This document shows, piece after piece, positions 1 through 15,817 of a stretch of DNA of 15,819 nt (positions within the stretch are counted from its first letter, which is position 1; each line of letters starts with the position of its first letter). Position numbers and translations under genes: made by a program. This DNA comes from Candidatus Eiseniibacteriota bacterium. Lineage in GTDB: Bacteria > Eisenbacteria > RBG-16-71-46. The DNA lies in the NCBI GenBank assembly GCA_043720995.1, contig JAYSRO010000211.1, positions 1-15,819 on the forward strand, given 5' to 3'. Under the pieces are notes generated by a model, which was not told where the DNA came from, ran no database searches, and saw only the letters and a list, made by a program, of their open reading frames with translations.

Positions 1-405
1 TACAACGTGCACGTCGCCGAGATCCGCCAGAGCTACCGCATCATCGAGCAGTGCGTGCGCAACATGCCGGATGGGCCGTACGTGGCGCAGGAGTTCCGCT
101 ACGGCATCCCCGAGCAGAAGCGCATGCTGCACGACATCGAGAGCCTGATTCACCACTTCGTCAACGTGTCGCGCGGCTTCGTGCCGCCTGCCGGTGAAGC
201 CTACGTGGCGACCGAAGCCCCCAAGGGCGAGTACGGCTTCTACATCATCAGCAACGGCAGCAACCTGCCCTACCGCGTGTTCGTGCGCACGCCGTCGTTC
301 CCGCACATGCAATCGCTGCTGCACCTGTCGAAGGGCGAGTTGCTCTCCGACCTCGTGCTGACGATCGGCGGCATCGACTTCGTTCTGGGAGACGTGGACA
401 AGTGA
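1..405 (+). CDS. nuoD: NADH-quinone oxidoreductase subunit D (49 kDa subunit), 3' partial; gene begins upstream of window
   Basis: ORF 7..405 translates to the C-terminal NuoD/Nqo4 sequence (…FYIISNGSN…TIGGIDFVLGDVDK). The frame is open to the window edge. The TGA stop overlaps the next start (GTGA). Confidence 0.9.
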   Translation, partial: YNVHVAEIRQSYRIIEQCVRNMPDGPYVAQEFRYGIPEQKRMLHDIESLIHHFVNVSRGFVPPAGEAYVATEAPKGEYGFYIISNGSNLPYRVFVRTPSFPHMQSLLHLSKGELLSDLVLTIGGIDFVLGDVDK

Positions 406-875
406 TCGAACTCAAGATCTTGGGGCCTGACGACAAGGCACTGAAGCGCGAGAAGATCGTCGATGTGCTGTGGGCGCTGCAGCAGGAGCGCGGCTACATC
501 GATGACGAAGCGGTGAAGTTGGCCGCGGCCGAATGCGCGCTGACACCGCTCGAAGTCGATGAAGTCGCGACATTCTATAATCTGCTGCTGCGTAGGCCTG
601 CCGGACGCCGCCAGATCTTCATCTGCGACAGCATCTCGTGCGAGCTGCGCGGCGCCGAGAGCCTGATCGCCGAGATCACCCAGCAGCTGGGCGCCAAGAT
701 GGGCGAAGTCACCGCCGATGGCGAATTCGGCCTGCTGCCGATCGTCTGCCTCGGCCACTGCGAAATGGCCCCATGCCTGCTCGCCAACGAAAGAGTACAG
801 GGACCACTCGCCACCGACCCCGAGTCGGTGCGCAAGATGCTCCAGGGGATTCGCGATGACCGACGTAATCCTTAA
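402..875 (+). CDS. nuoE: NADH-quinone oxidoreductase subunit E (24 kDa, 2Fe-2S)
   Basis: 157-aa product carries the four Cys of the NuoE [2Fe-2S] site (…FICDSISC…CLGHCEMAPC…). The GTG start overlaps the nuoD stop by 4 nt (GTGA). Confidence 0.9.
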   Translation: MIELKILGPDDKALKREKIVDVLWALQQERGYIDDEAVKLAAAECALTPLEVDEVATFYNLLLRRPAGRRQIFICDSISCELRGAESLIAEITQQLGAKMGEVTADGEFGLLPIVCLGHCEMAPCLLANERVQGPLATDPESVRKMLQGIRDDRRNP

Positions 876-2154
876 GGCGCAAGGGCGCAATGGCGCGCCG
901 GCCTCGATCGACGAGTACAAGGCCGCGGGCGGCTATGCGGCCGTCACCAAGGCGCTGCGCGAGCTCAAGTCCGACGACCTGATCCAGCTCGTCAAGGACT
1001 CCGGCCTGCGCGGACGCGGCGGCGCTGGATTCCCGTCGGGCATGAAGTGGTCGTTCGTCGGCCGCGGCGAAAAGTGGGACGGCGGGCCCAAGTACCTGTT
1101 GTGCAACGCCGACGAGATGGAGCCCGGGACCTTCAAGGACCGCGTGATCTTCGACAAGAACCCGCACATCCTGATCGAGGGCATGCTGCTCGCCGCCTTG
1201 GGCATGGAGATGACCGAAGGCTACGTGTTCATCCGCCGCGAGTACTTCCGCCAGGCGGACGACTTCGAGAAGGCGCTCGATGAAGCGCGCCGCGCAGGAA
1301 TGCTCGGCAACAACCTGGGCGGCACGAAGTTCTCGTTCGACATCCACGTGCATCGCAGCGGTGGCCGCTACATCTGCGGCGAAGAGACCGCGCTGATCAA
1401 CGCCTTCGAAGGCAAGCGCGCCAACCCGCGCGCCAAGCCGCCATTCCCCGCGACCAAGGGCCTGTGGGGCCGCCCGACCACCGTGCACAACGTCGAGACG
1501 CTGGCGTGCGTGCCGGGCATCATCGCGAATGGCGCGGAGTGGTTCAAGAAACTTGCGGCGAACCCCGAGGGTGCGGGCACCAAGTTGTTCGGCGGCAGCG
1601 GCGCGCTCGAGCGGCCGGCCTGCTTCGAGCGCCCGATCGGCACTTCGTTGCGCCAGATGATCGATGAGATGGGCGGCGTGCGGGGCGGCAAGAAGCTGCT
1701 GGCGGTGATTCCCGGTGGCGCCTCGACGCAATTCTTGACTGCCGACCAGATCGACGTCGCGATGGACTTTACGCCGGTCGAGAAGCTCGGCAGCCGTCTC
1801 GGCACCGGCACCTTCATCGTGTTCAGCGAGGACGATTGCCCGGTCAAGGGCACGCTCAACCTGCAGCGCTTCTTCGCGCGCGAATCGTGCGGCTTCTGCA
1901 CGCCGTGCCGCGACGGGCTGCCGATGGGAGTCGAGATCCTCCAGCGCATCGAGAGCGGACGCGGCACCAACTCCGATATCGACCGCCTCGATGAGCTGTA
2001 TGGCTTCATCGGGCCGAATTCCTTCTGTGCGCTTGCGGGCGGCGCCGCCGAACCCATAAAGGGCCTGATCCGTAACTTCCGCCCCCTGCTCGAGGAACAC
2101 ATCTCGGGCAAGTGCTGCCCGATGAAGAGCAGCCGGGAGGCCGTTCATGCTTAA
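856..2154 (+). CDS. nuoF: NADH-quinone oxidoreductase subunit F (51 kDa, FMN/NADH-binding, 4Fe-4S)
   Basis: The long ORF 718..2154 contains an internal ATG at 856 that gives an N-terminus (MTDVILKAQ…) alignable with E. coli NuoF. It has a GRGGAGFP glycine-rich FMN/NADH motif and ESCGFCTPCRDG 4Fe-4S motif. It overlaps the nuoE 3' end by 20 nt. Confidence 0.92.
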   Translation: MTDVILKAQGRNGAPASIDEYKAAGGYAAVTKALRELKSDDLIQLVKDSGLRGRGGAGFPSGMKWSFVGRGEKWDGGPKYLLCNADEMEPGTFKDRVIFDKNPHILIEGMLLAALGMEMTEGYVFIRREYFRQADDFEKALDEARRAGMLGNNLGGTKFSFDIHVHRSGGRYICGEETALINAFEGKRANPRAKPPFPATKGLWGRPTTVHNVETLACVPGIIANGAEWFKKLAANPEGAGTKLFGGSGALERPACFERPIGTSLRQMIDEMGGVRGGKKLLAVIPGGASTQFLTADQIDVAMDFTPVEKLGSRLGTGTFIVFSEDDCPVKGTLNLQRFFARESCGFCTPCRDGLPMGVEILQRIESGRGTNSDIDRLDELYGFIGPNSFCALAGGAAEPIKGLIRNFRPLLEEHISGKCCPMKSSREAVHA

Positions 2155-2201
2155 CGCCTCGCGCGACCGACGACTCGGCCTCGCGGGACAGGAGACCGTG
2201 C

Positions 2202-4592
2202 GTGCCTGAGATTACCTACGACGGAAAGAAGATCACGGTCCCTGCCGGCACCAACCTGGTTGATGCCGGAGCCGCCGCCAACGTGTCGGTGCCGATTTTC
2301 TGCTACCACAAAGATCTCGGCGCCATCGGCTCATGCCGCGTGTGTGCCGTGACCGTGACGCAGGCCGGCAAGAGCAAGACGGTGATGGGCTGCATGACCG
2401 AGGCGCTCGAGGGCATGGAGGTCACGACCATGGATGAGCACTCGCGCGCGCTGCGCAAGCAGGTGCTCGAGTGGATCATGATCAACCATCCGCACGACTG
2501 CCCGATCTGCGACGAGGGCGGCGAGTGCCAGCTGCAAGACCTGACCATCGCGGCCGAGCACGGCATCCGCCACACTGAACTGAAGAAGCGCACCTTCGAG
2601 AACCAGCACCTGGGCGAATTCATCCAGCACGAGATGAACCGCTGCATCACCTGCTACCGCTGCCAGCGCTTCTACCAGGACTACGCCGGCGGCAACGACT
2701 TTGGCGTCACCGGCAGCCAGCAGCGCGTGTACTTCGGCCGCTTCGAGGATGGCGCCTTCGAGAGCCCGTATTCGGGCAATCTCGTCGAGCTCTGCCCCAC
2801 CGGCGTGTTCACCGACAAACTGTTCCGCTACAAATCGCGCGTGTGGGACCTTGAGATGGCGCCGTCGGTGTGCCCGCACTGCCCTGTCGGCTGTAACATC
2901 ATGCCGGGTGCGCGCCACCGCATGCTGCAGCGCATCCGCATGCGCGAGAACCCGCAGGTCAACGGCTCGTTCCTGTGCGATCGCGGCCAGTTCGGCCACG
3001 GCTACGTGATGGACCCGAACCGCCCGCGCACGCTGCGCCTGAACGGCGAGATCTCCGACTGGAGCAGCGCGTTGGCGCTGACCGGTGGCGCATTGCTCGA
3101 GACCGCGCGCCAGAAGGGTGCTGCGAGCATCGCGCTGATCACCTCGTCGCGCGCCTCGCTCGAGACGCACTACGCCTTGCGTCAGTTGGCGAGCGGCCCG
3201 CTCGCCGGCGCCAAGGTCAGCCACTTCGACGATCCGGAGCGCGAACTGCGCGCCCTCGCCAGCCTCAAGCTGCTCGCTGATGTCGGTGCAGCGCCGCTCG
3301 AGCAGTCGGATCTCGCCCACTGCGACGTATTGCTGATCGCCGGCACCTCACTGGTCGATGAGGCGCCGTTGGCTGGCCTCGCGGCGCGGCAGTGCCACCG
3401 CCAGGGCGGCAAGGTGTTCGTGCTTTCGGCGCTCGAGCGCTACCTCAATGATTGCGCCACCGTGATCCCCACGCATCCCGCGGCACTGGCCGATGCGCTT
3501 AAGGCAATCGCTGCTGGCACCGGTGACGGCGCGCTGGGTGATGCGGCCGCGGCACTCAAGGCGGCGCAGCGCCCGGGCATTCTCGTGGGCAACGATCTGG
3601 TGGATGGTCCGTCACTGACCGCCGCAGGCGAGCTGGCGAAGTCGCTGAAGTCCGCCGGTAAGGCTGTGCGCTTCGGCGCGCTGTTCAGCGGGCCCAATGG
3701 CTTCGGTGCGGCCGCGATGTCGAACGGTGCGGGCCTCGGCGAGATCCTCGCCGGGCTCGAGGGCGGCGCCTTCCAGGCCGCCGTGGTCGTCGAAAGCGAA
3801 TGGTCTTCGTGGAGCCCGCGCGCGCGGCAGGCGCTCGAACAATTGCCGCTGCTAATCGTGCTCGACTACTTGGCAGGTCCGCTGGCCGACAAGGCCAAGG
3901 CGTTCTACCCGACGACCGTCACCTACGAATCGAACGGCACCTACGTCAACCGCGCCGGCCGCTTGCAGGGCTTTGCCGCGGTGCGCGTCCCGGGCCGCTC
4001 GGCGATCGAAGAAATCCAGGATCACTCGTTCCGCCGCACCTACCAGCGCGACGCCGCCGATGGCGAGGCGCAGATGGCGTGGTGGGTGCTCGATGCCTTG
4101 CGCGAGCACACCGTTGGCAGCCCGGCGGTGCGTGATCTCGAAGGCCTGCGCGCGGGACTCGAGCAGAGCCACGCGGTGTGGCGTCCGCTGCATGGCCTCA
4201 AAGCTGGCGATGAAGGCACCTACGTAGACCACGCAGCACTAGCGCCCGCGAGCGCTACCGTGCCCGCGTTCACACGCGAGGCCGGGCTGCAATTGTTCCG
4301 CACCGAACGCACGCTGGGCTCGGAAGTCCTGTCGCGCCGCTCGGAGCCGATGCGCAAGACGGCAAACGCACCGGTCGCGTTGTTCTCGCCCGCGGATGCA
4401 GCACGGCTCAAGCTGAATGGCCGCGTCTCGCTCGAGATCGACGGTTCGTCCGTCGAGGTCGGGGCCCTAGCGCTGGCCGGTGTTCCCGATGGCGTCGTAC
4501 TGGTACCGCGCGATGTCGAATGGCCGATCATCCCCCGTCAGGGCGCTCCCGTTCGCGCCGTGGCGCTCCAGACCGAAGAGGTGGCCCGATGA
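2202..4592 (+). CDS. nuoG: NADH-quinone oxidoreductase subunit G (75 kDa, Fe-S, molybdopterin-like fold)
   Basis: An in-frame GTG at 2202 is preceded by GGAG (2191-2194). The N-terminus is VPEITYDGKKITVP…. Cys clusters are CYHKDLGAIGSCRVC (2Fe-2S), HPHDCPICDEGGEC, CITCYRCQRF and CPTGV (4Fe-4S), plus CPHCPVGCN. Product is about 796 aa (Thermus Nqo3-like length). Confidence 0.92.
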   Translation: MPEITYDGKKITVPAGTNLVDAGAAANVSVPIFCYHKDLGAIGSCRVCAVTVTQAGKSKTVMGCMTEALEGMEVTTMDEHSRALRKQVLEWIMINHPHDCPICDEGGECQLQDLTIAAEHGIRHTELKKRTFENQHLGEFIQHEMNRCITCYRCQRFYQDYAGGNDFGVTGSQQRVYFGRFEDGAFESPYSGNLVELCPTGVFTDKLFRYKSRVWDLEMAPSVCPHCPVGCNIMPGARHRMLQRIRMRENPQVNGSFLCDRGQFGHGYVMDPNRPRTLRLNGEISDWSSALALTGGALLETARQKGAASIALITSSRASLETHYALRQLASGPLAGAKVSHFDDPERELRALASLKLLADVGAAPLEQSDLAHCDVLLIAGTSLVDEAPLAGLAARQCHRQGGKVFVLSALERYLNDCATVIPTHPAALADALKAIAAGTGDGALGDAAAALKAAQRPGILVGNDLVDGPSLTAAGELAKSLKSAGKAVRFGALFSGPNGFGAAAMSNGAGLGEILAGLEGGAFQAAVVVESEWSSWSPRARQALEQLPLLIVLDYLAGPLADKAKAFYPTTVTYESNGTYVNRAGRLQGFAAVRVPGRSAIEEIQDHSFRRTYQRDAADGEAQMAWWVLDALREHTVGSPAVRDLEGLRAGLEQSHAVWRPLHGLKAGDEGTYVDHAALAPASATVPAFTREAGLQLFRTERTLGSEVLSRRSEPMRKTANAPVALFSPADAARLKLNGRVSLEIDGSSVEVGALALAGVPDGVVLVPRDVEWPIIPRQGAPVRAVALQTEEVAR

Positions 4593-5104
4593 TTCGCGAC
4601 CTGATCGACGGGTTCGCCGTGACGTGGCGCAAGATGTTCGAGAAGCCGGTGACGGTCCAGTATCCCGAAAGCAAGCCGGTGATCCCCGAGCGCTACCGCG
4701 GCAAGATCATCCTGACCAGCGACCCAAGCGGTGAAGAACGCTGCGTCGCCTGCCACCTGTGCAGCGCCGCCTGCCCGGTCGACTGCATCACGATCCAGGC
4801 GGCCGAGCGTGAAGACGGACGCCGCTACCCGGAAGCCTTCCGCATCAACTTCAACCGCTGCATCTTCTGCGGACTGTGCGCCGAGGCCTGCCCCACGCTG
4901 GCGCTGCAGATGTCGCAGGACTTCGAGATGGCCGAGACCGACGGACTCAGGCTGATCTACGAGAAGGACCGCCTGAGCGTCCCGCACGGCGGCAAGTACC
5001 CCGACTATTCGTTCTGGGAAGAAGCCGGCACCGCGGTGACGCACGCGCTGGGACACGGCAAGCAGGATTCGCCGCCTTCGGACCCACGATCGAACATGCC
5101 CTGA
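4589..5104 (+). CDS. nuoI: NADH-quinone oxidoreductase subunit I (2x[4Fe-4S] ferredoxin-type)
   Basis: The ATG at 4589 overlaps the nuoG stop (ATGA). The product MIRDLIDGF…RYRGKIILTSDPSGEERCVACHLCSAACPV…CIFCGLCAEACP has two CxxCxxCxxxCP motifs. Identity to E. coli NuoI is high by eye. Confidence 0.92.
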   Translation: MIRDLIDGFAVTWRKMFEKPVTVQYPESKPVIPERYRGKIILTSDPSGEERCVACHLCSAACPVDCITIQAAEREDGRRYPEAFRINFNRCIFCGLCAEACPTLALQMSQDFEMAETDGLRLIYEKDRLSVPHGGKYPDYSFWEEAGTAVTHALGHGKQDSPPSDPRSNMP

Positions 5105-8045: not shown

Positions 8046-8330
8046 ATGGCAAAGGGCAAAGGGATGGCGTTTGGCGGTGACACCTCGCGCGATGCGCTTC
8101 GCGCCCAGTACGCCGCACTACGCCGCCTCACCATCGCGCAACGGCTGGCGCTCATGGATGACCTGACGCGGCTCGTCCAAACGATGACACGCGAGGGCGT
8201 GAGGCGGCGGCATCCAGAGCTCTCCGAGGAACAACTCGAAGCCAAGTACTTCGAGATCACCCTGGGCCCGGAACTGGCCGCGCGCGTGCTGGAGCACCGC
8301 CGGTCCCGTGCGACGCGAACCGCGCCGTGA
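8046..8330 (+). CDS. Small (94 aa) predicted all-helical protein; candidate partner/antitoxin of downstream nucleotidyltransferase
   Basis: ATG at 8046 with a strong GGGAGGG RBS. The product is MAKGKGMAFGGDTSRDALRAQYAALRRLTIAQRLALMDDL…RRRHPELSEEQLEAKYFEITLGPELAARVLEHRRS. The stop overlaps the downstream start by 4 nt (GTGA). No recognisable catalytic motif. Confidence 0.55.
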   Translation: MAKGKGMAFGGDTSRDALRAQYAALRRLTIAQRLALMDDLTRLVQTMTREGVRRRHPELSEEQLEAKYFEITLGPELAARVLEHRRSRATRTAP

Positions 8331-8905
8331 CACTGCCCACCGAATTTCTCATGCACGTGGCCGGGATGCTCGAACGGCTAGGGATCCGGTACCACGTTGG
8401 CGGCTCCGTCGCGAGTTCTGCCCACGGCATGTACAGGGCATCGGCGGACATCGACTTCGTCATTGATCCCACGCCTGAGCAACTGAACGCCCTGACTGCC
8501 GAGCTCGATCCCGAGTTTTACGTCAGCCGAACGGCCGTGGCGGAGGCCCTCGAGAGCCGGGGCACGTTCAACGCAATCCACGAGGCGACCTCGTTCAAGA
8601 TCGACTTCTTCATCAAAGGTGCCGCCCCGTTCGATTCCGAGGAATTGCAGCGCTCCGTCCGGCAGGTTGTCGAAGCCGGGTCTTCGCGAGAGGTATCTAT
8701 CAAGAGCCCCGAAGACACGATCCTGCGCAAGCTCGACTGGTTCCGGCGCGGCGGAGAGGTGTCGGAGCGCCAGTGGCAGGATGTGCTCTCGATCCTTACT
8801 GCCTCCCGGGGCAAGCTCGATGACGCCTACCTGGACCGTTGGGCTCGCGAGCTGGACGTCGCGGGGCTGTTGGACCGGGCCCGCCAGGAGAGCGTGAACC
8901 GCTAG
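8327..8905 (+). CDS. Minimal Pol-beta-superfamily nucleotidyltransferase (AbiEii/MenT-like or ANT(2'')-like)
   Basis: Signature hG[GS]…DhD: …GIRYHVGGSVASSAHGMYRASADIDFVID…. The spacing resembles ANT(2'')-Ia (YWLAGGWAVDALLGRQTREHDDIDLVV) and the AbiEii R-x-S-x-D-I-D-F motif. A third acidic strand is at …FKIDFFIK…. A C-terminal ~90-aa helical region follows. The GTG start at 8327 is translationally coupled; ATG 8351 is an alternative. Confidence 0.7.
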   Translation: MTLPTEFLMHVAGMLERLGIRYHVGGSVASSAHGMYRASADIDFVIDPTPEQLNALTAELDPEFYVSRTAVAEALESRGTFNAIHEATSFKIDFFIKGAAPFDSEELQRSVRQVVEAGSSREVSIKSPEDTILRKLDWFRRGGEVSERQWQDVLSILTASRGKLDDAYLDRWARELDVAGLLDRARQESVNR

Positions 8906-12357: not shown

Positions 12358-12900
12358 CTAGAGCAATGCCGCCAGCACGCTGGTCACCATCAGGGCTCCC
12401 CACGCCAGTGCGGTCATGACGAGCAGCCGCGAAGTCCGCTCCTCGACGCTGCGCAGCGAACGCCCCGCGAGGACAACGCGCCCCGAACCGTCATCGACGG
12501 GCTGGAGCACCACCGCCACTCGCACGCCACGCAGGGGCCGCCACGTGACGCGATGAGAACCGTTCGCGCGCACGAGGGCGAGGACTCCCGCGGGCGGAGT
12601 AGGCAGGACCCCTGCGAGACGGCCAGAGCCCGCGATGGCATGATCCGCGGAGTCGTAGACGATGAGGAACGGCCCCAACGTGGTCGCGACATCAACCACG
12701 CCCGCGGGGATCACGCCAGCGGCATCCGCACCGGCACGCAGTGCGTTCGCAGCATCGCCCGCCATCTGCAGTTGCGGATCGTCTCCCGCGTTGCGATAGG
12801 TCTGCTGCACCGCTGCATGGATGAACACCACGGCGATCGTCGCGGCGGCCGCGGCGAGCATGGCTTTGAAGAGCTTGCGTAGCGGCGGCGTGTGCATCAT
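12358..12900 (-). CDS. Hypothetical bitopic membrane protein (N- and C-terminal TM helices, ~120-aa central domain), co-transcribed with uppS
   Basis: 180-aa ORF. The start ATGATG overlaps the uppS TGA (ATGA). Hydrophobic segments are LFKAMLAAAAATIAVVFIHAAV and LLVMTALAWGALMVTSVLAALL. No recognisable catalytic motif. Confidence 0.6.
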   Translation of the reverse strand: MMHTPPLRKLFKAMLAAAAATIAVVFIHAAVQQTYRNAGDDPQLQMAGDAANALRAGADAAGVIPAGVVDVATTLGPFLIVYDSADHAIAGSGRLAGVLPTPPAGVLALVRANGSHRVTWRPLRGVRVAVVLQPVDDGSGRVVLAGRSLRSVEERTSRLLVMTALAWGALMVTSVLAALL

Positions 12901-13637
12901 CCCTCCCGCGGTGGGGTAAGCCCGCCGAAGCGGCGGTCACGACGGCGAAAGCGCTCGAGGCATGCGGCGAGATCCGCAGGCCGGAACTCCGGCCAGGGTG
13001 AGTCGAGGAACTCCAGCTCGGCGTAGGCGCACTCGAACAGCAGGAAGTCGCTGAGCCGCCGCTCCCCACCGGTGCGGATCAGCAGGTCAACATCCGGCGC
13101 GGACGCGGGTTCGTGTGCGGCGGCACCCAACGCCGCGAGGAACGTTGCGCGCGTGGGGTTCGAGCCCGCGAGTGCGGCAGCACCCTGGATCATGTCGCGG
13201 GCGGAATAGTCGATCGCAATCCGCAACCACAGCTCGTGCCCGCCGGCGGTCAACTGCTCCGCTTCGCACAGGATCTGCGCCAGCCCCACCGGCAGCCGGT
13301 CGCGCCGCCCGGGGAACGTGAGCCTCACACCGTTGCGCACGCACTCCCGCGCTTCACGCCGCAGTGAGCCGCTGAGCAATTGGAACAAAGCACTCACTTC
13401 AGCCGCGGGACGGCGCCAGTTGTCCGAGGAGAACGCGAACAGGCTCAGCGTGCCGACGCCCAGTGCCGGCGCCGCCGCGATGATGCGCCGGACCGCGGCA
13501 GCGCCCGCGCGGTGGCCCGCCACGCGTGGGAGCCCACGCCGCTCGGCCCAGCGTCCGTTACCATCGAGAATGATCGCGACGTGCGGCAGACGGGCGTGCG
13601 CCGGCGCGGCTTCGAGCGACGAAGTACTTTGTGCCAT
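12897..13637 (-). CDS. uppS: Undecaprenyl-diphosphate synthase (cis-isoprenyl transferase)
   Basis: HVAIILDGNGRWA, LFAFSSDNWRRPAAEVSALF, IRTGGERRLSDFLLFECAYAELEFLD and RRDRRFGG are near-identical to E. coli UppS motifs. 246 aa. Confidence 0.93.
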   Translation of the reverse strand: MAQSTSSLEAAPAHARLPHVAIILDGNGRWAERRGLPRVAGHRAGAAAVRRIIAAAPALGVGTLSLFAFSSDNWRRPAAEVSALFQLLSGSLRREARECVRNGVRLTFPGRRDRLPVGLAQILCEAEQLTAGGHELWLRIAIDYSARDMIQGAAALAGSNPTRATFLAALGAAAHEPASAPDVDLLIRTGGERRLSDFLLFECAYAELEFLDSPWPEFRPADLAACLERFRRRDRRFGGLTPPREG

Positions 13638-13642
13638 AAAGT
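13623..13642. promoter_or_regulatory. Operator-like palindrome site 1 (AGTACTTTGTGccatAAAGT) spanning the uppS start codon
   Basis: Shares the identical 12-mer AAGTACTTTGTG and the half-site structure ACTTTGT-N3-AyAAAGT with site 2 at 14789-14808. The uppS ATG (cat at 13635-13637) lies in the palindrome spacer. Confidence 0.45.
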
Positions 13643-13652
13643 TGATGGCTCC

Positions 13653-13679
13653 AAAAAAGCGGCCGGTGCTCCCGGCCGC
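13653..13679 (-). terminator. Strong rho-independent terminator (minus strand) of the membrane-protein/regulator operon
   Basis: Minus-strand reading: GCGGCCGG-gagca-CCGGCCGC is a perfect 8-bp GC stem followed by TTTTTT. It lies 84 nt after the regulator stop and 16 nt before the uppS ATG. Confidence 0.7.
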
Positions 13680-13762
13680 GAGTGGTTCGACGGCTGCTGC
13701 GTTGCTTCGTGCTGCGGTGCTGCGGTGCTGCGCCTCACCTGAGACGTTGCCCGGACCGGCTG

Positions 13763-14143
13763 CTATCTCTGCGTGGCCTTGATCAACGCTTCCATGTGCC
13801 GCAAATAGGATTCGAGCCCACGCCGGCCCACGGGGGTGAGCTGGTACTCCGTGCGCGGCACGCGGCCAGCGAAGCTCTTCTCACACCTGACGAGACCGAC
13901 CTCCTCGAGCTTGCGGGCGTGCACGCTGAGATTGCCGTCGGTGATGTTCAACAGTGTCCGCAGCTCGACGAAGGTCATCACGGGCGTCACCGCCAGCGCC
14001 GACAGCACACCGAGCCGGGTGCGATCGTGGATCAGTGGATCCAGCGCGAGCGTGGCCCGCCCCGCGGCGCCGGGCTCGGTGTCCCCGGCGGGACGCTTGC
14101 GTGCGGGCGCCGGGTCCTTGGCACGGGCTGCCGACCTAGCCAC
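13763..14143 (-). CDS. Winged-helix transcriptional regulator (HTH_34/ArsR-like wHTH family)
   Basis: …LDPLIHDRTRLGVLSALAVTPVMTFVELRTLLNITDGNLSVHARKLEEVGLVRCEKSFAGRVPRTEYQLTPVGRRGLESYL… matches the IHxxxRLxI…GNLSxHLxKLExAGxV…GRxPRTxYxLTxxGR wHTH pattern. The annotated long ORF (to 14326) overlaps the upstream gene. The likely start is the GTG at 14143 (overlap GTGGCTAG with the upstream stop), giving ~126 aa with an Arg/Ala/Pro-rich N-tail. Confidence 0.72.
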   Translation of the reverse strand: MARSAARAKDPAPARKRPAGDTEPGAAGRATLALDPLIHDRTRLGVLSALAVTPVMTFVELRTLLNITDGNLSVHARKLEEVGLVRCEKSFAGRVPRTEYQLTPVGRRGLESYLRHMEALIKATQR

Positions 14144-14750
14144 CGTGACGCCTCGCGATCCAGAGCCCGAAGGCGATGTGCAGCACGCCGAATCCGCTGG
14201 CCATCCAGGCATCACGCGCGACGCCCGGCACGAACAGCGCAACGGCGCCCAACAACATGAAGGCGACTCCCATCGCGCGTACCGCCGCGACCGAGAACAG
14301 GCCGCCGACCGCAATGCCCACGCCATACAGCAGCAGCCACATGCCCGGCAAAGTGTTGGGCAGGCCGTCCGGCATCCATCGAGCGGTCAGCACCGCAGCG
14401 GCGATGATCGGCAGGCAGAACGCCAGCGCGAAGCGCCGCCATGCGCCGTTCTGGAACAGCGAGCCTGAGGCGCGCGACTTGAAGGCCATCGCGGCACTGC
14501 CGAGGGCGATCGCCAGCACGGCTTCGACAAGCCAGGTGCCGAGCCATGCCGTGTCGTTCGGGGTGCGCGCGGCGAGCACCGCCGCCAGCAGGGCCGTGAC
14601 GCCGATCACGGCCAGCCCCCAGCCGGGGAACGCCGTCAGGCTCGAGGCGCGCTCCATGGTCTCGCGAATGAAACGCAGGTCCTGGGCGGCATGCTTGCCG
14701 ATCGGGGTGATTCGGGCCGTGGGCCGTTCGAATGCGGGATCGCCAGTCAT
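14136..14750 (-). CDS. Hypothetical polytopic membrane protein (4-5 TM helices) upstream of the wHTH regulator
   Basis: ORF 14136..14861. The start is probably the ATG at 14750, because the palindromic site 2 lies inside the longer N-terminal extension. Hydrophobic helices include WGLAVIGVTALLAAVLAA, LVEAVLAIALGSAAMAF, LAFCLPIIAAAVLTA, MWLLLYGVGIAVGGLFSVAAV and GVAFMLLGAVALFVPGV. Confidence 0.6.
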   Translation of the reverse strand: MTGDPAFERPTARITPIGKHAAQDLRFIRETMERASSLTAFPGWGLAVIGVTALLAAVLAARTPNDTAWLGTWLVEAVLAIALGSAAMAFKSRASGSLFQNGAWRRFALAFCLPIIAAAVLTARWMPDGLPNTLPGMWLLLYGVGIAVGGLFSVAAVRAMGVAFMLLGAVALFVPGVARDAWMASGFGVLHIAFGLWIARRHGG

Positions 14751-14788
14751 CAGGAACAAGGCTATGGCTTCGCCGCAGCGCTCGTCAA

Positions 14789-14808
14789 GTACTTTGTGTG
14801 ACAAAGTC
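14789..14808. promoter_or_regulatory. Operator-like palindrome site 2 (AGTACTTTGTgtgACAAAGT), ~40 bp upstream of the membrane-protein start
   Basis: Perfect 7-3-7 inverted repeat ACTTTGT-GTG-ACAAAGT. The 12-mer AAGTACTTTGTG is identical to site 1. It lies between the DUF4097-like gene stop (14897) and the membrane-protein ATG (14750). Confidence 0.45.
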
Positions 14809-14896
14809 GAAATCACGCCAGAACACTGAACATGCGCCGTCTTCATCGTTACGGGCCACATTCACTCGCGCGCCCCGCCCAAGGCCACAACGTGGG

Positions 14897-15817
14897 CTAC
14901 CGCTGCCCCGCCGCCTGCACGACTTCCGCCGGTGGATCGCCCTGGCGGAGGTTGATGCGCCCGCCGAACGACTGGAGGTCCACGCGCGCGCGCCCCTCGC
15001 CCAGCATGAAACTGAAGCTGCGGCCGGGGCGCATGATGCCGACACGCATGGGGAATTGTGACTGGAACCCGCCGTTGAAGGTCGACACCATCACCGTGGC
15101 GTCCGCGCTCTGTGGCAGCAGCACGTCCATGTTGCCGCCGTGCGTGGCCATGCGGTAGCGCCCGCCATCGACGATCCAGCCCGTGAACTGCATGTCGCCG
15201 GTCACGGTGGTCGCCTCGATCAGGCTCGAACGCACGCGGTCGAGCACGACGTTGCCGTTCACCGATTCGATCGTGAGATCGCCGGAGACGTCGTGCACGC
15301 CGATGTCCGACTCCATCGAGCTCAGCTGCATGCGCCCCTGAGCGCCGCGCACATCGACACCGCCGGTCATCGAGCTCAACCGGATCAACCCCAGCCCGCC
15401 GCGCAGCCTCACTCCACCGCGTACGGTCTCGGCCAGCACGTCGCTCTTCCAGCCATCGACATCCATGTCGCAGTGAAACCCTTCGAGGTCGAGCGACATC
15501 GTCGCCGGCGCCGTGATCTGGTAGCTCACCGGCAGCGGAGCCTCGCGGCCACGCGTGTGCACATCCACCCGCGCCGGCAGCTCGCGTCCGCGCGAGCGCA
15601 CGTCGATCGAGCTGCCCTCGCGCGTCACCACCACGCGCACTGGCCCCAGGTGCGTGGCCTGGATACGCAGCAGGTTCTTCTTCCCCGGGCGCACCACCAC
15701 GTTGCCGGAGAAGTTGTGCAGCGCGAGCCGCGATCCTTCGGGAACCGAGAAGCTCGTGTCGGTCTGCACGGCCGGTGCGGTAGCCAACAACACCAGCGAG
15801 AATAGCGACGTCAACAT
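14897..15817 (-). CDS. Secreted DUF4097-like beta-helix repeat protein (putative adhesin / LiaF-like fold)
   Basis: 306 aa with a signal peptide MLTSLFSLVLLATAPAVQT. Short G/V/D-rich beta-repeats recur (GNVVVRPG, GGVDVRG, SGDLTIESVNGNVVLDRV, GGNMDVLL) as in DUF4097 proteins. The ATG lies at the window edge, so the true start could be further upstream. Confidence 0.65.
   Translation of the reverse strand: MLTSLFSLVLLATAPAVQTDTSFSVPEGSRLALHNFSGNVVVRPGKKNLLRIQATHLGPVRVVVTREGSSIDVRSRGRELPARVDVHTRGREAPLPVSYQITAPATMSLDLEGFHCDMDVDGWKSDVLAETVRGGVRLRGGLGLIRLSSMTGGVDVRGAQGRMQLSSMESDIGVHDVSGDLTIESVNGNVVLDRVRSSLIEATTVTGDMQFTGWIVDGGRYRMATHGGNMDVLLPQSADATVMVSTFNGGFQSQFPMRVGIMRPGRSFSFMLGEGRARVDLQSFGGRINLRQGDPPAEVVQAAGQR

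Follow-up and report, generated by a model that had tools for sequence, protein, structure and literature searches.

A 17-nucleotide palindrome, ACTTTGT-N3-AyAAAGT, occurs twice in the 15,819-nucleotide stretch of Candidatus Eiseniibacteriota DNA analysed here (the window; contig JAYSRO010000211.1 of assembly GCA_043720995.1), once in front of a gene pair encoding a six-helix membrane protein and an HTH_34 winged-helix regulator, and once across the start codon of uppS, the undecaprenyl-diphosphate synthase gene that follows the pair. The two palindromes together with the pair are a strongly conserved cis-regulatory arrangement that extends across phyla. We consider it likely that, as operators, these two palindromes allow the regulator to repress both uppS and the operon that encodes it, with the membrane partner probably providing the signal. 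Isoprenoid lipid-carrier synthesis would then be under a form of transcriptional control that has not been described.

What determines the size of the undecaprenyl-phosphate pool in bacteria, a limiting factor for the synthesis of peptidoglycan, O-antigen, teichoic acid and capsule, has long been an open question, with uppS usually treated as constitutive. The arrangement supplies a concrete candidate regulator and operator together with an uncharacterised membrane partner (about 2,900 family representatives), in a regulatory geometry that is conserved with uppS in some lineages and with ispH/lytB or a polyprenyl-reductase-like gene in others.

Two palindromes around a conserved gene pair

All genes around the palindromes, encoding a DUF4097 protein, the membrane protein, the HTH_34 regulator and UppS, lie on the minus strand (Table 1), and the two copies form a direct repeat that encloses just the membrane-protein/regulator pair. 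Scanning the window (66% GC) for ACTTTGT-N3-ACAAAGT returned the upstream copy (site 2) with no mismatch and the downstream copy (site 1) with one, and no third copy at up to two mismatches, at an expectation of 0.01 in shuffled sequences. Both sites share the 12-mer AAGTACTTTGTG (13622-13633 and 14787-14798), for which shuffles expect 0.00. A weight matrix derived from other genomes by leaving out one locus at a time gave both sites high scores (Table 1), and everything else in the window stayed below 6 bits. With two copies in the window, the palindrome does not occur at many unrelated positions in the manner of a dispersed repeat or repetitive extragenic palindromic (REP) element. A sequence-only reading of the same DNA had taken both sites for one element and had judged a chance recurrence of the 12-mer very unlikely; the mismatch scan, shuffles and matrix scores confirm the former and the shuffles the latter. 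Its 20-mer coordinates were right for site 1 (13623-13642) and one base off for site 2, which lies at 14788-14807 and not at 14789-14808.

To place the window among its relatives, the regulator was used as a query against one genome per species, and 547 relatives were confirmed among the first 600 candidates. The best 80 of these 547 (52-69% identity, the closest being Gemmatimonadota) formed the locus set, each covering 10 kb on either side of the regulator; motifs were counted in 81 sequences, at 10 bits or more in the weight matrix. The 80 loci come from Acidobacteriota, Gemmatimonadota, Verrucomicrobiota, Thermoleophilia, Dormibacterota and others. The membrane protein adjoins the regulator in 80 of 80, and in 52 of 80 uppS is the next gene after the regulator, in the same orientation, with two further contigs ending within the first uppS codons. 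Upstream of the membrane-protein gene the motif is present in 71 of 81 loci, within 260 nucleotides (nt) after the regulator in 59 and at both positions in 51. Beyond these two positions, only 20 weak hits (10-14 bits) were found in 1.31 Mb.

This gene order, with the motif lying between regulator and uppS, bears out the link between the two that the sequence-only reading had suggested. A motif scattered over the genome or missing from orthologous loci would have spoken against that suggestion; the motif is not dispersed, and the orthologous loci do carry it. A further part of the suggestion fell: the DUF4097 protein, assumed there to belong to the module as a secreted beta-helix component, is adjacent to the pair in 0 of 80 loci, which rules it out as a member. 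It is a neighbour in the window only, with a weak likeness to LiaG (24 bits against a cutoff of 285). Neither a transposase nor an integrase accompanies the module. The cdsA/dxr-type housekeeping context was not found 3′ of uppS, where the genes are variable, with extracytoplasmic function (ECF) sigma factors in two loci.

Loci without an adjacent uppS reveal what else may stand downstream. There, the site and the thymine run that goes with it (see below) precede a protein of about 228 residues with an N-terminal transmembrane segment and a DUF4352-like domain, or a flavin adenine dinucleotide (FAD) oxidoreductase of the geranylgeranyl-reductase/lycopene-cyclase type, or sometimes both; in other loci, these two genes follow uppS. 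The downstream gene may also be CreD or DUF4153. In ten loci of a distant membrane-protein/HTH_34 subfamily, whose regulators are 33-43% identical, the downstream site precedes ispH/lytB (E = 1e-72 to 1e-78), which is followed by a gene for a B12-binding radical S-adenosylmethionine (SAM) protein of about 565 residues. The constant element is the membrane-protein/regulator pair and the variable element an isoprenoid or membrane gene. The lipid II cycle stress invoked in the sequence-only reading gives way here, as the targets (ispH/lytB, the geranylgeranyl-reductase-like gene, CreD, DUF4153 and the transmembrane DUF4352-like protein) point to isoprenoid and membrane homeostasis. The distant subfamily is represented by loci L116, L142, L144, L151, L152, L154, L168, L177, L180, L188 and L200, and a conserved TTGAAC lies 24-25 nt upstream of its ispH/lytB-side palindrome.

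Metagenome contigs scanned for the exact palindrome gave at least 120 loci, which are not a random sample. Among the matches listed, 35 of 120 adjoin homologues of the membrane protein or regulator (27 of 59 on contigs with a GC fraction of at least 0.5 and 8 of 61 below), and 85 of 120 have no recognisable module nearby. One match, at 2075-2115 of L093 (a 2.8-kb contig with no module gene on it), combines the exact palindrome with a second CTTTGCAAAGTAC motif next to it; a gene for a PAP2-superfamily phosphatase, possibly an undecaprenyl-diphosphate phosphatase, lies 47 nt downstream. As a single case, it may be a target in trans or a chance match.

Table 1. Coordinates of the operators, promoter elements and genes of the module and its neighbour in the window
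Feature	Position	Strand	Remarks
DUF4097 protein gene	14897-15817	-	
Upstream operator, putative (site 2)	14791..14807	.	ACTTTGTGTGACAAAGT, perfect 7-3-7 palindrome; 27.4 bits
-35 hexamer TTGACG of the membrane-protein/regulator operon promoter, predicted	14783..14788	-	From sequence; TTGAC at the same offset in 45/64 loci
-10 hexamer TAGCCT (TAnnnT), predicted	14759..14764	-	Spacer of 18 nt to the -35; ATG follows after 8 nt
Six-helix membrane protein gene, 204 aa	14136..14750	-	No Pfam or NCBIfam family
Winged-helix regulator gene (HTH_34, ArsR-like), 126 aa	13763..14143	-	HTH_34, 81.8 bits
Intrinsic-terminator-like hairpin and T6	13653..13679	-	8 G-C pairs and 5-nt loop (13679-13659), T6 (13658-13653); between regulator and uppS
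Shine-Dalgarno-like GGAG	13649..13652	-	11 nt before the uppS ATG; presumed role
Downstream operator, putative (site 1)	13626..13642	.	ACTTTGTGCCATAAAGT, 1 mismatch to a perfect palindrome; 27.1 bits
uppS, cis-prenyltransferase / undecaprenyl-diphosphate synthase, 246 aa	12897..13637	-	TIGR00055, PF01255

The regulator and its membrane partner

The regulator belongs to HTH_34 (PF13601; 81.8 bits against a cutoff of 27, E = 4e-23), also matches HTH_5 and HTH_20, and has PH1061 (PDB 1ub9) as its best solved relative (E = 9.5e-8). Its recognition helix, TDGNLSVHARKLEE, is at least 95% conserved in the 81 sequences, as would be expected with an operator that hardly varies. Judging from the sequences, the regulator encoded between the two sites very probably binds both of them. 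It falls below the cutoff for ArsR/SmtB metalloregulators (NF033788, 28.7 against 55 bits), and inspection of its sequence revealed a single cysteine and neither a CVC/ELCVCD-type nor an alpha5 metal site. Residues 1-30 form a variable, basic, proline-rich tail with ARKRPAG, resembling the core of an AT-hook. Binding of this tail to the thymine run by the downstream operator is conjecture only, and no such run accompanies the upstream operator.

The GTG start codon of the regulator overlaps the stop of the membrane-protein gene by 8 nt (GTGGCTAG), and the identical overlap is found in locus L201. Homologues of the membrane protein are about 204 residues long and comprise 2,938 family representatives at 50% identity, all unannotated. 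An AlphaFold2 model shows six helices (mean predicted local distance difference test score, pLDDT, of 79.8). An N-terminal helix, LRFIRETMERA, and a C-terminal ARRHGG are highly conserved and are predicted to lie on the same side of the six-helix bundle. A 241-residue open reading frame (ORF) starting at 14861 was rejected as an over-extension, since the lengths of the homologues put the start at 14750. The 100% identical database entry P0001 is called with 241 residues, an annotation that would hide site 2 and the promoter in 'coding' sequence (14751-14861).

In one database protein, P0263 (300 residues), a membrane-protein domain (3-192) and an HTH_34 domain (214-293) are joined in a single ORF; it is either a Rosetta-stone fusion supporting physical coupling of the two proteins or a frameshift artefact. 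An apparent long HTH_34 fusion in L094 was discarded: its N-terminal part is artefactual, coming from a GC-rich ORF read out of frame.

Placement of the palindromes at the operon promoter and at uppS

Downstream of site 2, read along the minus strand, come AC, the -35 hexamer TTGACG, 18 nt, the -10 hexamer TAGCCT, 8 nt and the ATG of the membrane-protein gene. The promoter would be of the sigma-70 type and its messenger RNA leaderless or nearly so, with the transcription start placed from the sequence; a simple promoter scan of the window missed it because of the weak -10. The comparison between loci gave an upstream consensus of rCTTTry-N3-ryAAAGT-AC-TTGACA, with TTG exactly 3 nt after the site in 51 of 64 loci, a TAnnnT 16-18 nt past the -35 in 45 loci and the first ATG or GTG 6-9 nt beyond the -10 in 43 of these 45. 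A palindrome at the promoter of the regulator's own operon, at a fixed spacing to the -35 box, is hence conserved in orthologues (71 of 81), in agreement with the sequence-only reading, which had located site 2 in the promoter region of this operon. In six loci the site lies about 11 bp nearer the -10 box, over the -35 position. In the distant subfamily, the palindrome sits in the spacer that separates -35 from -10, with TACAAA, its right half, also serving as the -10, a classic repressor position. Taken together, the positions of the upstream site favour repression.

The gene at site 1 is clearly assigned, matching TIGR00055 with 198.5 bits (cutoff 109.55) and PF01255 (Prenyltransf) with E = 3.9e-62 over profile positions 1-219. 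As the sequence-only reading had noted, site 1 straddles its start codon: on the minus strand it reads ACTTT-ATG-GCA-CAAAGT, with the ATG (13635-13637) inside the spacer and codons 3-4 (CAA AGT) forming the right half-site. Across the 24 loci with the uppS ATG inside the site (ACTTT-ATG-nnn-CAA-AGT), codon 3 is CAA in 22 and never CAG, and codon 4 is AGT in 17. Codons 2-5 of uppS in the window (GCA CAA AGT ACT) account for 9%, 16%, 3% and 7% of their codon families, at a GC content of 84% at third codon positions. The site also varies in its relation to the reading frame: in Bryobacterales the uppS ATG directly follows the thymine run and the site falls entirely within the coding sequence, in Terriglobia it is non-coding and lies 40-100 nt upstream of the ATG, and elsewhere it precedes unrelated genes as non-coding DNA. 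Since codons 2-5 are rare, CAA is kept in 22 of 24 loci and non-coding copies exist elsewhere, site 1 is under selection at the DNA level and not as peptide.

Between regulator and uppS, the window contains an intrinsic-terminator-like element, a GC-rich hairpin directly followed by a T-run, and site 1 lies 10 nt past that run. A T-run is present in 41 of 50 loci; in 40 of 50 it comprises 4-9 T and lies 7-11 nt upstream of the downstream operator, at exactly 8 nt in 23. This spacing is unchanged whether the operator is coding, in a 5′ untranslated region or in front of genes other than uppS. Compared with random 35-mers, the hairpins before the run are modestly stabilised (-10.1 against -8.1 kcal/mol, p=0.009), and a convincing adjacent hairpin is found in only 22 of the 41 loci with a run. 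GAGG or GGAG is common between T-run and site. The run is often preceded by an A-run (AAAAATTTTTT). A tandem repeat of three GTGCTGCG units lies on the plus strand at 13709-13732, between regulator stop and terminator, and was not seen in the other loci.

A promoter of its own for uppS, with the T-run as UP element or -35 (TTTTTTG...), was considered and rejected: its -10 would put the transcription start past the uppS start codon in loci with the ATG inside or before the site, and the Shine-Dalgarno sequence in the gap also counts against it. A leaderless uppS transcript was dismissed as well, there being no TAnnnT at the right distance. With no fitting promoter and a Shine-Dalgarno sequence upstream of the ATG, uppS appears to be transcribed from upstream, through the T-run. 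The uppS stop is overlapped (ATGA) by an ORF of 180 codons (12358-12900) that is probably co-transcribed with it; the predicted protein has hydrophobic segments at both termini and no family match, is not detectably related to the transmembrane DUF4352-like protein that follows uppS elsewhere, and has a homologue only in L033.

Proposed circuit, related systems and other genes of the window

In the circuit that we propose, transcription from the operon promoter would cover the membrane-protein gene and the regulator gene, whose translation would be coupled, and would extend into uppS by read-through. Occupancy of site 2 by a regulator dimer would limit initiation, resulting in autorepression. 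A dimer on site 1 would block polymerase molecules pausing at the terminator or already beyond it, gating uppS transcription separately from the regulator genes. The membrane protein would sense a membrane or isoprenoid-lipid signal and control the regulator, closing a feedback loop on carrier-lipid synthesis. These parts differ in strength. Repression, as opposed to activation, is fairly likely. Because the membrane protein is invariant and the targets vary, it is the most likely sensor of the system, and we give a role as sensor or anti-repressor a little less than an even chance. The distance between T-run and operator is roughly that of one polymerase front edge, so a bound dimer may stall polymerase on the U-tract and enhance termination; a roadblock coupled to the terminator in this way is a tentative proposal, on balance doubtful. 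Polyprenyl phosphate or a related isoprenoid as the signal is rather speculative.

Several observations weigh against this proposal. The membrane protein has no informative fold relative, so it is gene linkage alone that argues for a sensor role, and P0263, the sole fusion, could come from a frameshift, given the usual 8-nt overlap of the two genes. An activator could also work from the upstream site of the main family, whose centre lies near -46, before a consensus -35. About half of the loci have only a weak hairpin before the T-run, and the run may have another role. No uppS promoter was found, meaning that a terminator with eight G-C pairs must be read through to express a presumably essential gene. 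Finally, locus L058 carries a second uppS-like gene.

The position near -46 would suit an activator that recruits RNA polymerase there and promotes read-through or initiation for uppS from site 1. Two nucleotides separate the main-family site from the -35, leaving no overlap between them, and the rigid spacing of the site is typical of face-of-helix contacts with polymerase. However, the -35 is already the consensus TTGACA, which is unusual for activator-dependent promoters, the shifted sites of the six loci and of the distant subfamily cover the -35 or fall between -35 and -10, and site 1 lies over a start codon and downstream of any possible promoter, all of them repressor positions; we regard activation as improbable. 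The metagenome matches raise the question of whether an unlinked global regulator binds the palindromes, with the cluster merely one of its targets, a notion to which the 85 module-free matches and the palindrome ahead of the PAP2 phosphatase gene lend themselves. Yet the motif tracks the HTH_34 regulator across phyla and in two divergent subfamilies with differing downstream genes, its flanking positions are those of classic autoregulation, and most module-free matches lie on short contigs or on low-GC contigs, where an AT-rich 14-mer is expected by chance, leaving this explanation very unlikely.

Two further explanations dispense with a DNA-binding protein at the palindromes or with regulation altogether. 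Site 1 is transcribed, follows a hairpin and U-run at a fixed 7-11 nt and can pair, RNAfold placing the start codon in a small hairpin, and an ACUUU...AAAGU hairpin could in principle act with the upstream terminator as a cis attenuator or translational switch. Such an RNA element is highly improbable: the upstream copy, before the -35 of a leaderless promoter, is not transcribed; sequence is kept and pairing is not, as the arms often mismatch and CTTT and AAAG are fixed; and the stem is short and A-U-rich, with a z-score of only -2.2 for the whole region that comes mostly from the terminator. Alternatively, the copies might be end repeats of a mobile two-gene cassette inserted by different genes, given that they flank exactly the pair in direct orientation and that the pair stands beside genes as varied as uppS, ispH, the geranylgeranyl-reductase-like gene, CreD and DUF4153. 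Against this stand the lack of a transposase or integrase with the module, the fixed spacing of the copies to -35 and -10 boxes and start codons, the location of a distant-subfamily copy inside the promoter spacer and the shared isoprenoid or membrane theme of the neighbours, which are not random; a non-regulatory cassette is scarcely credible.

Repression of both operon and uppS by the HTH_34 regulator has partial precedents, and the module is nearest to SdpR/SdpI in logic and to BcrR in physiology, belonging to neither family. SdpR of Bacillus subtilis is an ArsR-family autorepressor sequestered by the polytopic membrane protein SdpI. The module would share with it a small ArsR-like winged-helix autorepressor, as proposed here, co-transcribed with a polytopic membrane protein that, in the proposed logic, controls repressor availability. 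In contrast to SdpR/SdpI, the gene order is reversed, the targets are isoprenoid or envelope genes and not a toxin-immunity operon, a second operator lies on the start codon of a biosynthetic gene, and the membrane protein matches no Pfam family, including SdpI. BcrR of Enterococcus faecalis is a membrane-bound one-component bacitracin sensor controlling bcrABD. It resembles the module as a membrane-associated one-component regulator tied to the undecaprenyl-phosphate cycle, and the architecture of P0263 is comparable, but BcrR binds DNA through an XRE and not an HTH_34 domain and activates a resistance operon instead of controlling the synthase, and the module normally consists of two separate polypeptides. 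With ArsR/SmtB proteins and PH1061, the regulator shares the winged-helix fold and, as predicted here, a palindromic operator and autoregulation; it differs from ArsR/SmtB in its sub-cutoff metalloregulator score, the missing metal-site residues and an obligatory membrane partner.

The analogy to LiaFSR or BceRS drawn in the sequence-only reading lost its basis with the DUF4097 result, and neither a histidine kinase nor a response regulator was among the window ORFs scanned; the remaining common ground is the idea that transcription responds to the state of the envelope or the lipid carrier, and the weakly LiaG-like DUF4097 neighbour. Repressors that act as roadblocks inside transcription units, with CcpA, CodY and lac O2 as examples, likewise use an operator downstream of the promoter, in the transcribed region at the start of the regulated gene. 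Here, by contrast, the operator lies at a fixed 7-11 nt from a terminator-type T-run, and this fixed distance suggests a coupling of roadblock and termination, which, to our knowledge, has not been described as a conserved design. The searchable literature, itself incomplete, yielded no account of the module, of its operator or of a regulator dedicated to uppS, which is no proof of novelty.

A broader reading, which we offer as a conjecture more probably wrong than right, would make the pair a widespread bacterial device for feedback on isoprenoid lipids, sensing for instance free polyprenyl phosphate. As part of the same conjecture, the six-helix protein would detect the lipid within the membrane and accordingly bind the repressor or let it go. 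The repressor would set transcription of uppS, ispH/lytB and polyprenyl-modifying enzymes, and at uppS its occupancy of an operator one polymerase footprint past the terminator would make a leaky terminator efficient. If true, the pair would be the first dedicated transcriptional regulator of carrier-lipid synthesis and a bacterial counterpart, in logic only, of membrane-based sterol and isoprenoid sensing. The module is found in the abundant soil phyla Acidobacteriota, Gemmatimonadota and Verrucomicrobiota, and the analysis offers a lead towards the function of two families that at present carry no annotation beyond 'hypothetical protein' and 'winged helix DNA-binding domain'.

The remainder of the window contains further gene groups. 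Genes of the nuo type occupy 7-5104 in the order 49-kDa subunit (partial), 24-kDa (nuoE-like), 51-kDa (nuoF-like), 75-kDa (nuoG-like) and a 2x[4Fe-4S] protein, with no nuoH between them; the gene for the 2x[4Fe-4S] protein overlaps the end of nuoG. At 8046-8905, between the genes for an FG-GAP repeat protein and an SPFH-domain protein, an ORF for an AbiEii-like nucleotidyltransferase toxin (8327-8905; PF08843, E = 5e-6) is preceded by an overlapping ORF of 94 codons with a sub-threshold match to Rv0078B-type antitoxins, and the two form a probable type IV toxin-antitoxin pair.

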